From a virus (lineage: Duplodnaviria; Caudoviricetes): a stretch of DNA of 31,568 nucleotides. The stretch lies in IMG/VR virus record IMGVR_UViG_3300020161_002333, positions 1-31,568 of that record. One strand, written 5' to 3'. Positions within the stretch are counted from its first letter, which is position 1; every line of letters begins with the position of its first letter. The notes beneath the pieces were generated by a model. It was not told where the DNA came from, did not search any database, and was given only the letters and a program-made list of their open reading frames with translations. The position numbers were made by a program, and so were the translations under genes. Shown here piece by piece: positions 21,394 to 26,834 of this stretch.

Positions 21394-22497
21394 TTAAAAA
21401 TTAGAGGAAACAAATATAGGTAGAGGTGCTTCCCAGTCCTCGTGCATTGATTCGATGCTTAATGTATCAAATACATTAGGATCCCATTCAGCTAAAACTA
21501 CGCTCATTCTTACTATAAGTAGAACCGCTGATACTAAATCATCATGCTGTCCTTGTTTTGCTTTAAAACTTACACCAAATGCAATGAATGCCTTGAGTTC
21601 ACTTATTAATGCTCTACTATTGATCAGCATTTTGTCTTCTTCAATTAAAAATTTTAATCTAGCACATGATGATATTTTATTACCAAATGTAGTATTAAAT
21701 CCTTTTCTGAATTTTTTCACATGTCCTTTTCTTAACGGTTCACTTAAAAACAATCCTGGGAATGTTTCTTCACCCAGGTTTTCAATAGTAACCAATGCAC
21801 TATCACCTACCGTATTGTTTTCAACTGACCAATAAATGCTATTAGTATTTTCCATACCAATTTCATCTTGTATGTATCTCAATACATCCCTTAATATTTT
21901 ACATTGTCCATGTATTGGTGTTAAATTATGTTGCCATTCAGCTACTTGGGTAAAACTTGGTAATTCAAATACCTGAACACCACCATAATCACCACCAGTT
22001 CCCAAACTTGGATCTAATGCAACCAAATATAAATGTCCAGCAGTTGGTTTTTTCCACCATCGCACTTGTCCCATCTTGAATAATGGTTCTCGTCCTAAAA
22101 GTTCTGATAATTTAATACTATTGACAAGTGTTTCATCATAAACTAAGAATTCGCAGTTCGATGATAAAATGGTATTTGCATAATATCGATGTCCGCCTTC
22201 CACCTCAATCAAATCATAGACCGGTTCAGTTCTACCAACATCTTCTTTTGATATTATTTTTACATCACCATTACTACATACAACTGTATCACCTATCATC
22301 AAATCGTTAACAGTTTTATACTCATTTTCATTGATATATAATTTATGTCCAGCAGTGCATTCTATCCAAGCATTATTATCGAACTGTACTCTATATATGT
22401 TTTCTATACCCATTAAACTAATACCAGCAAATGGTTGAAATCCAGTAGGAGTTAACACCTTATAACTATCTTTATTCGGTTTGAAAATCCGTTCCAT
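21394..22497 (-). CDS. 17: terminase large subunit fragment 3 (114-aa IntC plus nuclease domain)
   Basis: IntC ends YYANTILSSN|CEFL; LVALDPSLG, VENN and HDDLV RNase H-like motifs. Confidence 0.92.
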   Translation of the reverse strand: MERIFKPNKDSYKVLTPTGFQPFAGISLMGIENIYRVQFDNNAWIECTAGHKLYINENEYKTVNDLMIGDTVVCSNGDVKIISKEDVGRTEPVYDLIEVEGGHRYYANTILSSNCEFLVYDETLVNSIKLSELLGREPLFKMGQVRWWKKPTAGHLYLVALDPSLGTGGDYGGVQVFELPSFTQVAEWQHNLTPIHGQCKILRDVLRYIQDEIGMENTNSIYWSVENNTVGDSALVTIENLGEETFPGLFLSEPLRKGHVKKFRKGFNTTFGNKISSCARLKFLIEEDKMLINSRALISELKAFIAFGVSFKAKQGQHDDLVSAVLLIVRMSVVLAEWDPNVFDTLSIESMHEDWEAPLPIFVSSNF

Positions 22498-23633
22498 CTT
22501 TTAATACCTTATATTCTTGTTTATTTGTGAAGATCCAAACTTCATAATTATAACCGTTATCAATCACAGCTTGACGTTTTCTTAAATTATTCGTTAATCT
22601 AGATTTATATTTTTCAGCACCATTTCCATCCCACCACCATTGACTCTTAATTTCAATTATTCTATTTTCAGCAGGAATATAAATGTCTGGGTAATATTTC
22701 ATTTTGTGTTGATTTATATTAACATATTCAAAAATTGGCAGTTCTATTGGTAGAGAATAATTATCATGTAAAATTAACCCTTGTTCATCATATTGCTGTT
22801 CAAACAATATATTCAATGCCTGTGGTTCATATCCTCTAACACCTATTATTTTACCACTAGGCATAGTAAAATTTTTAATAGAGGCATTCCCTTTATTACT
22901 TTTTCTAGTGTTTCCAGGTAAAAGTAGAAGATTTTCAACCCCATACCGTGCTTTATTTGTCTTCCGTCTCTTGTCTGCAATTATATTCTTTTCTTCAACG
23001 GATTTTTTTATTCGTGTCTTTGATGCTTTTTTAGAATTACTCCAAAATTCATCACCATATCGTTCAATTTTTGTTTGTTTAGATTTCTCTTTATATGATT
23101 CACTAGCGGTGACCCATTCAACCCCATATTTTTTCTTAAACGTTTCCTTTGTTTTAGCTACTTGTTCAGCAATCTGCTCAGGTGTTCTATTATTAGCTGC
23201 TTCTTTTTTTGCATCAGAATCAGCATTTCTCTGTTCATCACTCCATGATTGTTTTGTACTACTAACTGAATTACCAACACATTTTGGATTTCCACAACTA
23301 TTAGCATAGCTTTCCGAAGCTTGATAAAATGTCAATGGTTTTCTACATTCACATAATGGTGTAAATCCAGTAATATATGTTTCATAATACTCACTATATG
23401 TCAAGTTGTGTGTTTTTAAATGTCTGGTAAAATGTCCGTTAGTTTTGCAATATTTGTGTTGGTCTATTTTTGATATGATATAAGTTGTTGCACACATAAG
23501 CATTCTCCATTAAATTGTTGTTGTGCAATTATTTATCATTAAACGTTTGACTATCAAAAAAATCTCCAATTGTTATATCAAATACCTTGCCATTTTCATC
23601 CATTAATGTTATAATAGTATTGTGTTCCACACA
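22156..23633 (-). mobile_element. atypically split intein cassette 2 in TerL: IntN 34 aa (23532-23633), endonuclease, IntC 114 aa (22156-22497)
   Basis: [11 protein letters not shown]...stop; IntC has VLTPTGF, TAGH, VYDL and SSN|C. Confidence 0.9.
22472..23503 (-). CDS. free-standing PD-(D/E)XK homing endonuclease
   Basis: YYPDIYIP...IIEIKS...GYNYEVWI; KYGVE/RYGVE repeats; GGAGA SD and TAAATA at 23530-23535. Confidence 0.85.
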   Translation of the reverse strand: MLMCATTYIISKIDQHKYCKTNGHFTRHLKTHNLTYSEYYETYITGFTPLCECRKPLTFYQASESYANSCGNPKCVGNSVSSTKQSWSDEQRNADSDAKKEAANNRTPEQIAEQVAKTKETFKKKYGVEWVTASESYKEKSKQTKIERYGDEFWSNSKKASKTRIKKSVEEKNIIADKRRKTNKARYGVENLLLLPGNTRKSNKGNASIKNFTMPSGKIIGVRGYEPQALNILFEQQYDEQGLILHDNYSLPIELPIFEYVNINQHKMKYYPDIYIPAENRIIEIKSQWWWDGNGAEKYKSRLTNNLRKRQAVIDNGYNYEVWIFTNKQEYKVLKDGTDFQTE

Positions 23634-25334: not shown

Positions 25335-26834
25335 ATATAATAATGATATTGAAAGACCACGACCAGTAGTACCAGTAGTAGTTTGACTTATAATACGAGA
25401 TCCATTGTCGAATTCCATACTACCTTTATTATAACTTACTACACCTGCACGTAAGAAATCTGGGCATAATTCATATCCATATCTAATACGTTGCATAATC
25501 TCTTGGGCACCAGTAAATTTATGTGCTGCTACAAGAATTGTCTGATCCGGATGGAACATGGCATACCATAATAAATATGCAGACGCACATGTAGTATTAT
25601 GTGTTGGTATCATCGTTTTACCACATAGAAACATATGACTATCATTGTCAACTTGAATACATCTTACTGGAACTGACGTTGTTTTAACTATTGATTTTAT
25701 ATATAACCTAGTATTTTTTGGATGACCTTTACATAACTTTTGTCTTTCTATTTTTCTTGATAACTTGAATACATCAAAAGATATAGTTGAAAATTTAATA
25801 GTGTAATAATCAACACCATTTATTATTTTAACAGAACATCTAGATTTGATGCCCAAAGATGACAAAATTTCTCTAACTTGAGATATTATATTATATTTTT
25901 TTTGATAAAACTCACAATTACCCTTTTTATTGCAACTACCATCGGTATCCATTAATCCACGTAATAATTCCAGTCGTTGTTCAATAGATGATCTTAAATA
26001 TTGTTCAGGTATATGTTTATTGTTTAATAACCCTAAGTTATTTAATTTAGTTCTTATCCCTATAATATTTCTTCGTTCGCTATTATCTGTATTATAAGAT
26101 GGGTTTGATACTTCAAACCCATCTTGTCTAATATGTTCTATTATTTCTATATTATCATTATTGCTTTGAACATATCTCCCATCACCTGAATAACCATCAC
26201 CAAGCCACAGTCCTAGAATATAAGGTGGTATTGGTAGCTCTTGATGGATATATTCAGATGGTTTTGATATGTTTATATAAAACCCCTGGTCAGAAGAATG
26301 TGTTTCTTTATATTCTTTTATTTGTTCAGTGGTTAAAATTTTTGGTCCTGTATTCCAATTTGAAGTTTCAACCTCCCATAAATGTTCAGCATCCGCTATA
26401 ATGATTTCACCATTATCAAATTCAACTTGATAACAAGTATGATTATTCATTATTTCAGTCGCAAAGGAAACAACCGTTCCCTTTCCATCAGGGCCCATAA
26501 TAATATCACCAACTTTAATATCACCCATTGTTGTCCAGCCAGTGGGGGTTGGAATAGGAGTATCTAAACTTAATGCTTTACCAGACTGTCTAGGCAACAT
26601 ATTGATATTAAATCGATTGTTATGATAACTATCCAATAATCCAAGTTGATATTGATATGGTTCAAATAATAACTTACCTTTTACAGGGTGTTGTATATGA
26701 AAAAAGTTTTTTGCAAAGTGAATATATCCATTAATAGGATCCATACACGCAAGCATATCTGAAATCTGTGTTTCAGTCCATTGTTGTTTTATGTGTGCTC
26801 GTTTTGTTAGAGCATTATCTACGTTTCTAGCCAT
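25215..26834 (-). CDS. 17: terminase large subunit fragment 1 (ATPase N-part, cis intein, 39-aa IntN)
   Basis: PYQYQ Q-motif, PRQSGK|TT Walker A, GRGLSISLLY. Confidence 0.93.
   Translation of the reverse strand: MARNVDNALTKRAHIKQQWTETQISDMLACMDPINGYIHFAKNFFHIQHPVKGKLLFEPYQYQLGLLDSYHNNRFNINMLPRQSGKALSLDTPIPTPTGWTTMGDIKVGDIIMGPDGKGTVVSFATEIMNNHTCYQVEFDNGEIIIADAEHLWEVETSNWNTGPKILTTEQIKEYKETHSSDQGFYINISKPSEYIHQELPIPPYILGLWLGDGYSGDGRYVQSNNDNIEIIEHIRQDGFEVSNPSYNTDNSERRNIIGIRTKLNNLGLLNNKHIPEQYLRSSIEQRLELLRGLMDTDGSCNKKGNCEFYQKKYNIISQVREILSSLGIKSRCSVKIINGVDYYTIKFSTISFDVFKLSRKIERQKLCKGHPKNTRLYIKSIVKTTSVPVRCIQVDNDSHMFLCGKTMIPTHNTTCASAYLLWYAMFHPDQTILVAAHKFTGAQEIMQRIRYGYELCPDFLRAGVVSYNKGSMEFDNGSRIISQTTTGTTGRGLSISLLYCLDGDTSIVKIRNKHTLVEEDISLKDLYIRLLNPQNVIT
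25596..26576 (-). mobile_element. contiguous 327-aa class 3 (Ala1, WCT) intein with LAGLIDADG in the TerL Walker A
   Basis: Starts ALSLDT; has HLW, VRCIQV and PTHN|T; ILGLWLGDG and LRGLMDTDG. Confidence 0.92.

Follow-up and report, generated by a model that had tools for sequence, protein, structure and literature searches.

In the 31,568-nucleotide (nt) stretch analyzed here (the window; positions 1 to 31,568 of the IMG/VR virus record IMGVR_UViG_3300020161_002333), the terL gene of a lake jumbo phage, which encodes the large terminase subunit (TerL), is laid out in three open reading frames (ORFs). The pieces keep their original order on one strand, and the enzyme is broken within split inteins. 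From the sequence, the 530-amino-acid (aa) packaging motor is very probably made by two protein trans-splicing reactions and one cis-splicing reaction. We propose, with a probability of roughly 0.5, that this is natural multi-piece ligation, in which a motor would be assembled from three or, in some relatives, four chains by two or three mutually orthogonal split inteins with short N-terminal halves (IntN), with breaks that open and close in living populations through endonuclease gain, in-frame re-fusion, and IntC swapping, and with pieces that, in the cultured Salicola phage SCTP-2, have become dispersed.

Read from position 26834 to 21394 on the minus strand, the locus comprises five ORFs, of which the first, third, and fifth match the terminase family PHROG 36964 at successive profile positions (20-522, 522-639, and 626-873). 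The first terL gene (25215..26834; 539 aa; E = 3e-115) encodes extein 1 (26577..26834; 86 aa, closing on the Gly-Lys of Walker A; 44/86 residues identical to TerL of Pseudomonas phage PA5oct), a contiguous 327-aa intein inside Walker A, referred to as site 1 (25596..26576), extein 2 (25335..25595; 87 aa, beginning at the Walker A Thr and running through the LLY strand of Walker B; 54/87 identical to PA5oct), and a 39-aa IntN with Cys1 at the Walker B break, referred to as site 2 (25218..25334). The second terL gene (23529..24275; 248 aa from Met14) encodes the C-terminal half (IntC) of the site-2 intein (23946..24275; 110 aa, ending in Lys-Asn and followed by Cys+1), extein 3 (23634..23945; 104 aa, opening with the Cys-Asp-Glu of Walker B; 64/104 identical to PA5oct and 100% identical to the relative L007), and a 34-aa IntN, again with Cys1, at the next break, site 3 (23532..23633). 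The third terL gene (21394..22497; 367 aa) encodes the site-3 IntC (22156..22497; 114 aa, ending in Ser-Asn and followed by Cys+1) and extein 4 (21397..22155; 253 aa), which contains the RNase H-like nuclease domain (Terminase_6C). All of these features lie on the minus strand, as do two free-standing ORFs in the gaps, which we regard as putative homing endonuclease genes.

Joining the four exteins in silico gives 530 aa with the junctions SGK/TTC, LLY/CDE, and EYN/CEF, and the product aligns to the intact TerL proteins of PA5oct (531 aa; 281 of 518 aligned positions identical, 54%) and of Sinorhizobium phage Phosso (532 aa; 262/516 identical) with zero gaps at all three junctions. The earlier note on this DNA had claimed extein lengths of 86, 87, 104, and 253 aa over three ORFs, junctions that rebuild Walker A, Walker B, and EYN/CEF, and two split inteins with IntN pieces of 39 and 34 aa; each of these claims holds in the sequence. 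A search of the record, which is about 9% complete, with PA5oct TerL returned exactly these four pieces. Judged by neighboring genes and best matches, the relatives of the phage are PA5oct, Phosso, and Atu_ph07-like jumbo phages, and the terL of the window stands at the syntenic head-gene position of PA5oct. In the close relative L007/L060, whose exteins are 98 to 100% identical to those of the window, sites 2 and 3 are empty.

The stops and breaks are real, as they are repeated in contigs of several sequencing runs, and assembly errors, which the earlier note had named as a possible refutation, are disfavored. The six runs in which most of the locus is found are metagenomes of freshwater or lakes; they come from two studies and include two from which the locus may derive. 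No RNA data set was among the runs listed with the locus, which has no bearing on whether it is expressed. Both endonuclease genes are covered by contigs of runs X3 and X4, whereas X5 lacks part of the first; a further run, X7, yielded only short or divergent pieces of the locus. No insertion or deletion is listed in 21394-25350 among the run contigs, and an IMG/VR contig, which may come from the same waters, is identical to the window over 9,443 nt.

The contiguous intein in Walker A is, by its sequence, a class 3 intein. It has Ala1, a Trp-Cys-Thr (WCT) triplet, a His-Asn end, Thr+1, and a LAGLIDADG domain, and it matches solved DnaB inteins (PDB 6RIX; E = 1e-32). Class 3 inteins, for which the MP-Be DnaB intein is the prototype, have been defined by a non-nucleophilic residue 1, the WCT triplet, and Thr or Ser at +1 (PMC2807308), all of which are found here. 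With MP-Be DnaB and the structures 6RIX and 6BS8, the Walker A intein shares the Trp of block B (position 12), the Cys of block F (position 4), and the Thr of block G (position 5), as well as Ala1, Thr+1, insertion in a P-loop, and the LAGLIDADG domain. There is no difference of kind, and this is the ordinary part of the locus.

The two split inteins carry class 1 features, namely, Cys1, a T-x-x-H motif in block B, Asp in block F, a terminal Asn, and Cys+1. Each of the two IntC halves is similar to CatC, a consensus atypical intein (PDB 6DSL; E = 2e-8 for site 3 and 3e-5 for site 2), and the site-3 IntC also scores above the cutoff of TIGR01443; its alignment to CatC continues into the Cys-Glu of the extein. 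At site 3, Cys-Glu directly follows the intein, as in Cat, whose native flanks we take to be EFE/CEF, while site 2, in Walker B, is a different position. A search of PDB with the site-3 IntN plus seven extein residues, the only IntN queried, gave no match. The site-2 IntC probably has 110 aa, starting at Met14 (24275), rather than 123 aa, because relatives begin at the matching residue and an AAAGGA box lies upstream; the IntN lengths given in the earlier note stand. Sequence comparison thus identifies both split inteins as Cys1/Cys+1 relatives of the Cat and AceL-TerL inteins. Consistent with this, AceL-TerL, GOS-TerL, and Cat have IntN pieces of 25 to 37 aa (34 and 39 aa here) and IntC pieces of 104 to 115 aa (110 and 114 aa here), and Cys+1 and a terminase host are common to all of them (PMC11766414 and PMC13014065). 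However, those inteins have been studied singly, as tools, whereas the window has two on one protein; a Walker B site, the coexistence of two such inteins, and a middle chain of the order IntC-extein-IntN are not described for them in the available text of these two papers. All listed split alleles of sites 2 and 3 retain Cys1, a terminal Asn or Gln, and Cys+1, and in 13 of 13 comparisons with intein-bearing relatives, nonsynonymous difference (pN) was lower than synonymous difference (pS) for every intein half, for instance, 0.15 versus 0.81 for the site-2 IntN against the relative L058.

On this basis, the motor is likely to be assembled as follows. Chain 1 (61 kDa) would excise its Walker A intein by the predicted class 3 cis-splicing reaction. 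Its 39-aa IntN would pair with the 110-aa IntC of chain 2 (29 kDa), joining LLY to CDE and rebuilding Walker B, and the 34-aa IntN of chain 2 would pair with the 114-aa IntC of chain 3 (41 kDa), joining EYN to CEF. Since the middle chain has the order IntC-extein 3-IntN, mis-pairing would cyclize extein 3 or skip it, and cognate pairing must therefore be favored, probably through a preference intrinsic to the inteins that may be aided by extein contacts and coupled translation. Each break probably arose by insertion of a free-standing endonuclease gene close to the N terminus of a mini-intein, with the gene bringing a stop, a promoter, and restart signals, along the lines of the model of Dassa et al. 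(2009).

To place this locus among its relatives, the three sites were classified in 289 loci, consisting of the window, three GenBank phages, and loci from scans that covered 53 of 55 matches and the best 80 of 186, of at least 595, and of at least 472 matches. Merging by extein-3 sequence and state left 186 distinct alleles, whose counts are not frequencies, because the queries favor intein-bearing alleles. All three sites are empty in 127 of the 186, and 12 (19 of the 289 loci before merging) have at least two split inteins. In six of these the split inteins occupy sites 2 and 3, in two they occupy sites 1 and 2, and in three they fill every site; the remaining one is of the window's type. 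The three fully split alleles are four-chain terL loci with three split inteins (L058 at 2107-7098, L063 at 373-5438, and L138); in L058, the stop codon of the site-3 IntN abuts the start of the IntC, with no endonuclease between them. Some other split alleles also lack endonucleases, for example, L062 at both breaks. Contiguous mini-inteins occur at site 2 (L139, L150, L229, and L238) and at site 3 (L228), so that empty, contiguous, and split forms, which the earlier note had proposed looking for, were all found, sites 2 and 3 included. In a quick tree of 62 rows, each site forms one group (support 99, 95, and 82), and the contiguous inteins of L229, L150, and L228 fall among split alleles. 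The reading of double trans-splicing plus one cis-splicing event put forward in the earlier note is thus well supported indirectly, by motifs, selection, alleles, and SCTP-2, but the case is not unique, given the 11 other multiply split alleles. Overall, the layout recurs in uncultured jumbo phages and, by sequence, is likely to be functional.

By ORF reading, terL has at most one break in Campylobacter phage CP21, Vibrio phages EniLVp02, VP-1, and 1.244.A, Shigella phage JK32, and phage SRB7757, those of VP-1 and SRB7757 being coarsely read. In CP21 (L292; 1532-5818), a single break interrupts terL immediately ahead of Walker B, and a 421-aa ORF separates the halves; this terL has further cis inteins, and in the CP21 record the second piece is only partly annotated.

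The strongest indirect support for working double trans-splicing in a viable phage comes, at the sequence level, from Salicola phage SCTP-2 (MF360958.1; 440 kb), which has three terL genes, each annotated as a terminase large subunit. The first, gp534 (429356-429748, minus strand; L299), encodes extein 1 and a Walker A IntN; gp267 (256428-257321, plus strand; L298) encodes the IntC, extein 2, and a Walker B IntN; and gp224 (215993-218077, minus strand; L003) encodes the IntC, an additional cis intein, and the remainder of TerL. Site 2 is thus in common with the window, here paired with site 1. The exteins join to 531 aa that are 49% identical to PA5oct TerL, and a search of the whole 440-kb record found only these three terL places and no intact copy. 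With distances of 38 and 173 kb between them and opposite orientations, the pieces cannot come from one transcript. The Walker B IntN of SCTP-2 is extended (95 aa in total) and its IntC ends in Gln, and an HNH-like ORF (gene 225) precedes the third terL piece. Cyanobacterial DnaE and Nanoarchaeum Pol (PMC2677866) likewise have pieces that lie apart and are joined in trans; however, these involve two chains and a single split intein, whose IntN is long, as is usual. No multiply split terL was seen in the available text of publications on SCTP-2 that mention inteins.

A sister allele in the lake samples suggests that such a break can also close again. Contigs of three of four runs, all from one study, join position 24297 directly to 25216, and in run X6, a single 23.9-kb contig spans this joint at a depth of 19.5, compared with 2 to 5 for the branch with the endonuclease. 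The missing 918 nt (24298..25215, minus strand), defined by the assembly joint and a reading-frame check, remove most of endonuclease 1 and fuse the site-2 IntN and IntC in frame, so that ORFs 1 and 3 merge into a continuous frame of 795 codons, within which lies a contiguous 157-aa mini-intein. This in-frame fusion is direct evidence that the two site-2 halves are parts of a single intein. The eight-residue linker of the fused allele comes from DNA for the C-terminal end of the endonuclease, read in another frame, so this allele probably descends from the split one. In L229, site 2 has a contiguous 165-aa intein that is a sister of the split intein of L141 and retains the old IntC start Met after its linker; this is likely a second re-fusion.

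The ORFs in the two gaps are putative homing endonucleases, labeled by motif and family likeness, and to this extent the earlier claim of a free-standing endonuclease between the halves of each split intein was borne out. Endonuclease 1 (24242..25177, minus strand; 311 aa from its likely start, Met18, at 25177) is homologous to ORFs that separate the two halves of the site-2 intein in other alleles and shows pN below pS against L058. It has no Pfam match; its C-terminal domain resembles PD-(D/E)xK, DUF559, or Vsr-like nucleases, which is a lead. Endonuclease 2 (22472..23497, minus strand; 341 aa from its likely start, Met3, at 23497) matches Pfam DUF7487 (E = 6e-31) and a PHROG homing endonuclease family (E = 6e-6) and has a PD...EIK motif. 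The sequence TATAAATA (25183..25190, minus strand), a T4-type late-promoter consensus, lies 5 nt upstream of the likely start of endonuclease 1; it is the sole copy on the minus strand of the window and precedes this endonuclease only. A late-promoter motif and a hairpin have been described upstream of fracturing endonucleases (PMC2677866), whereas the hairpins upstream of the two endonucleases here had z-scores within those of shuffled sequences (-1.56 and -0.46). The GGAG box and the start codon of endonuclease 2 lie inside a short inverted repeat at 23491-23528 (minus strand), whose folding energy is within that of shuffles. Within endonuclease 2, depth dips at 22701-22931 in runs X3, X5, and X6, where an alternative segment is possible and a second allele may exist; a 229-nt skip in this gene is seen at 90% likeness and absent at 97%.

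This arrangement closely resembles the fractured genes of Dassa et al. (PMC2677866), in which a free-standing endonuclease likewise lies between the halves and the end of the endonuclease gene overlaps the start of the IntC by 6 to 69 bp; the overlaps here are 34 nt (endonuclease 1 and site 2) and 26 nt (endonuclease 2 and site 3). The 2009 model also foresaw the loss of the endonuclease and the dispersal of the pieces. However, their loci are each in two, with one break and two chains, and the most complex of them, DnaE-1, has one split intein and part of another in frame, whereas the terL of the window has two breaks and three chains and that of some relatives is broken three times. The terminase IntC of that study, with His-Asn and Ser+1, resembles by eye the site-1 IntC of our relatives and not the IntC halves of sites 2 and 3.

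At site 2, there are two IntC types, which are 35% alike on average, and the IntC type travels with the C-terminal domain of the endonuclease, which is HNH-like by motif reading in one type and PD-(D/E)xK-like in the other. The N-terminal 140 aa of the site-2 endonucleases are shared, and the nuclease domain switches with the IntC type. Identical or near-identical site-2 IntN pieces with two different IntC types occur in L137 and L237, and likewise among L210/L217 and L140/L230.

Several observations weigh against our proposal, and they bear on different alternatives. L137 and L237 have identical site-2 IntN pieces, yet their IntC halves are only 36% identical, close to the 32% found between the two IntC halves of the window; the IntN pieces of GOS-TerL and AceL-TerL are interchangeable according to a review (PMC11766414); and in a screen of split inteins, cross-reaction was seen mostly among atypically split pairs (PMC7090010). 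The strict mutual orthogonality inferred in the earlier note is therefore open to doubt. It is possible, although we lean against it, that the two split inteins cross-react and give a partial yield of correct motor together with cyclic extein 3 (~12 kDa) and a skip product (~48 kDa). This would be a sub-case of trans-splicing in which the waste is tolerated because little terminase is needed, and it would fit the alignable pattern common to the site-2 and site-3 IntN halves and the use of one IntN sequence with both IntC types. On the other hand, IntN pieces within site 2 are 68 to 70% alike, whereas likeness between the IntN pieces of the two sites averages only 23%. The sites, moreover, form separate groups in the quick tree, and alleles with two or three splits are found repeatedly, in divergent phages as well as in a cultured one, which suggests that their cost is small. 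Net charge revealed no simple complementarity code between the sites, and an AlphaFold2 model of the middle chain, built on an alignment of 10 sequences, was uninformative on how the intein ends pack (mean predicted local distance difference test score, 55; predicted template modeling score, 0.36). As judged from these comparisons, clean orthogonality of the two split inteins seems to have somewhat better than even odds.

The adverse points also include the endings of the split inteins, both of which lack the penultimate His, with Lys in its place at site 2 and Ser at site 3. This residue is usual in class 1 inteins, not obligatory, and similar endings without it are found in many relatives. 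Its absence is compatible with halves that associate without ligation into a noncovalent three-chain motor kept together by the intein halves, as in the fractured NrdA of phage Aeh1, and noncovalent assembly of endonuclease-fractured genes is known (PMC2677866). We consider this improbable, given the retention of the splicing residues in all listed split alleles and given that site 2 interrupts Walker B directly ahead of its Asp-Glu, so that a domain of ~150 aa left in place there would be expected to block catalysis. For the site-3 IntN, the selection signal is weak (against L058, pN is 0.34 and pS is 0.48), and in the pN/pS comparisons, synonymous sites are close to saturated. In addition, because the record is a fragment, about 9% complete, an intact terL may lie elsewhere in the genome, in which case the terL of the window could be dead or spare and packaging could depend on that copy or on the terminase of a coinfecting phage. 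This seems very improbable in view of the syntenic position, the intact frames, the signs of purifying selection, and the lack of an intact copy in SCTP-2. Finally, joining at the level of RNA or the ribosome, by an intron, bypassing, or read-through, can hardly be credited, and the same goes for stops that are assembly errors, since several runs and the identical IMG/VR contig repeat the stops and both gaps. Group I introns do split terL into several pieces in gut jumbo phages (PMC12880540), unlike the inteins of the window, and the length of gap 1 is a multiple of three. However, the 48 in-frame stops in gap 1 include all three stop codons, gap 2 does not keep the frame, an Rfam intron search of 20800-27400 gave no match at E values up to 0.1, and the SCTP-2 pieces lie far apart on opposite strands; stop read-through, recoding, and intron splicing were rejected on the first three of these grounds. 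Trans-splicing of the three chains thus remains our preferred reading.

The components are all known: fractured genes with a single break (PMC2677866), atypically split terminase inteins (PMC11766414, PMC13014065, PMC10189870, and PMC7891396), and class 3 inteins. No natural protein with two split inteins was found in the literature searched, in which few subscription papers were covered, and no multiply split protein was found in the available text of PMC7412058, PMC7824862, PMC6892783, and bioRxiv 10.1101/2025.01.02.630785. Among engineered systems, cyclization constructs for split-intein circular ligation of peptides and proteins (SICLOPPS) have the order IntC-target-IntN. The middle chain of the window has this order too, and engineered multi-piece ligation with orthogonal libraries (PMC7090010) likewise uses several split inteins on one product. 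In contrast to both, the window is natural, the ends of its middle chain come from different inteins, and the predicted outcome is linear ligation and not a ring.

The window is heavily invaded beyond terL. A second fractured gene, for a DnaB/gp41-like helicase (2498-5448, minus strand), has a typically split intein with Cys1 and Cys+1 (IntN of 88 aa at 4174-4437 and IntC of 46 aa at 2870-3007), and the 380-aa ORF between its halves has PHROG 22677 in common with endonuclease 1. A contiguous 373-aa LAGLIDADG intein with Cys1 and Thr+1 lies in Walker A of a UvsW-like helicase (11628-12746, minus strand). Free-standing putative endonucleases are encoded at 17408-18103, 29068-29856, and 322-1128 (minus strand), two of them bearing NUMOD3 and one being endonuclease VII/HNH-like.

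In summary, natural split inteins have been described as joining two chains, and here two or three trans-splicing steps would act on one protein. Phylogeny and annotation of phages based on terL will misread such genes as fragments. Short-IntN inteins are few and are wanted for protein semisynthesis, and pairs that co-occur are candidate orthogonal tools; if orthogonal multi-piece ligation is confirmed, these loci would supply orthogonal pairs ready for use in semisynthesis from several fragments, and the process could be tested in vivo in SCTP-2. The allele series covers the steps proposed in 2009, from empty sites through split alleles with and without an endonuclease to dispersed pieces, and in-frame re-fusion to a mini-intein within one population adds a further step to them. 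How a chain that begins with an IntC and ends with an IntN avoids cyclizing would show how specificity evolves between homologous split inteins.

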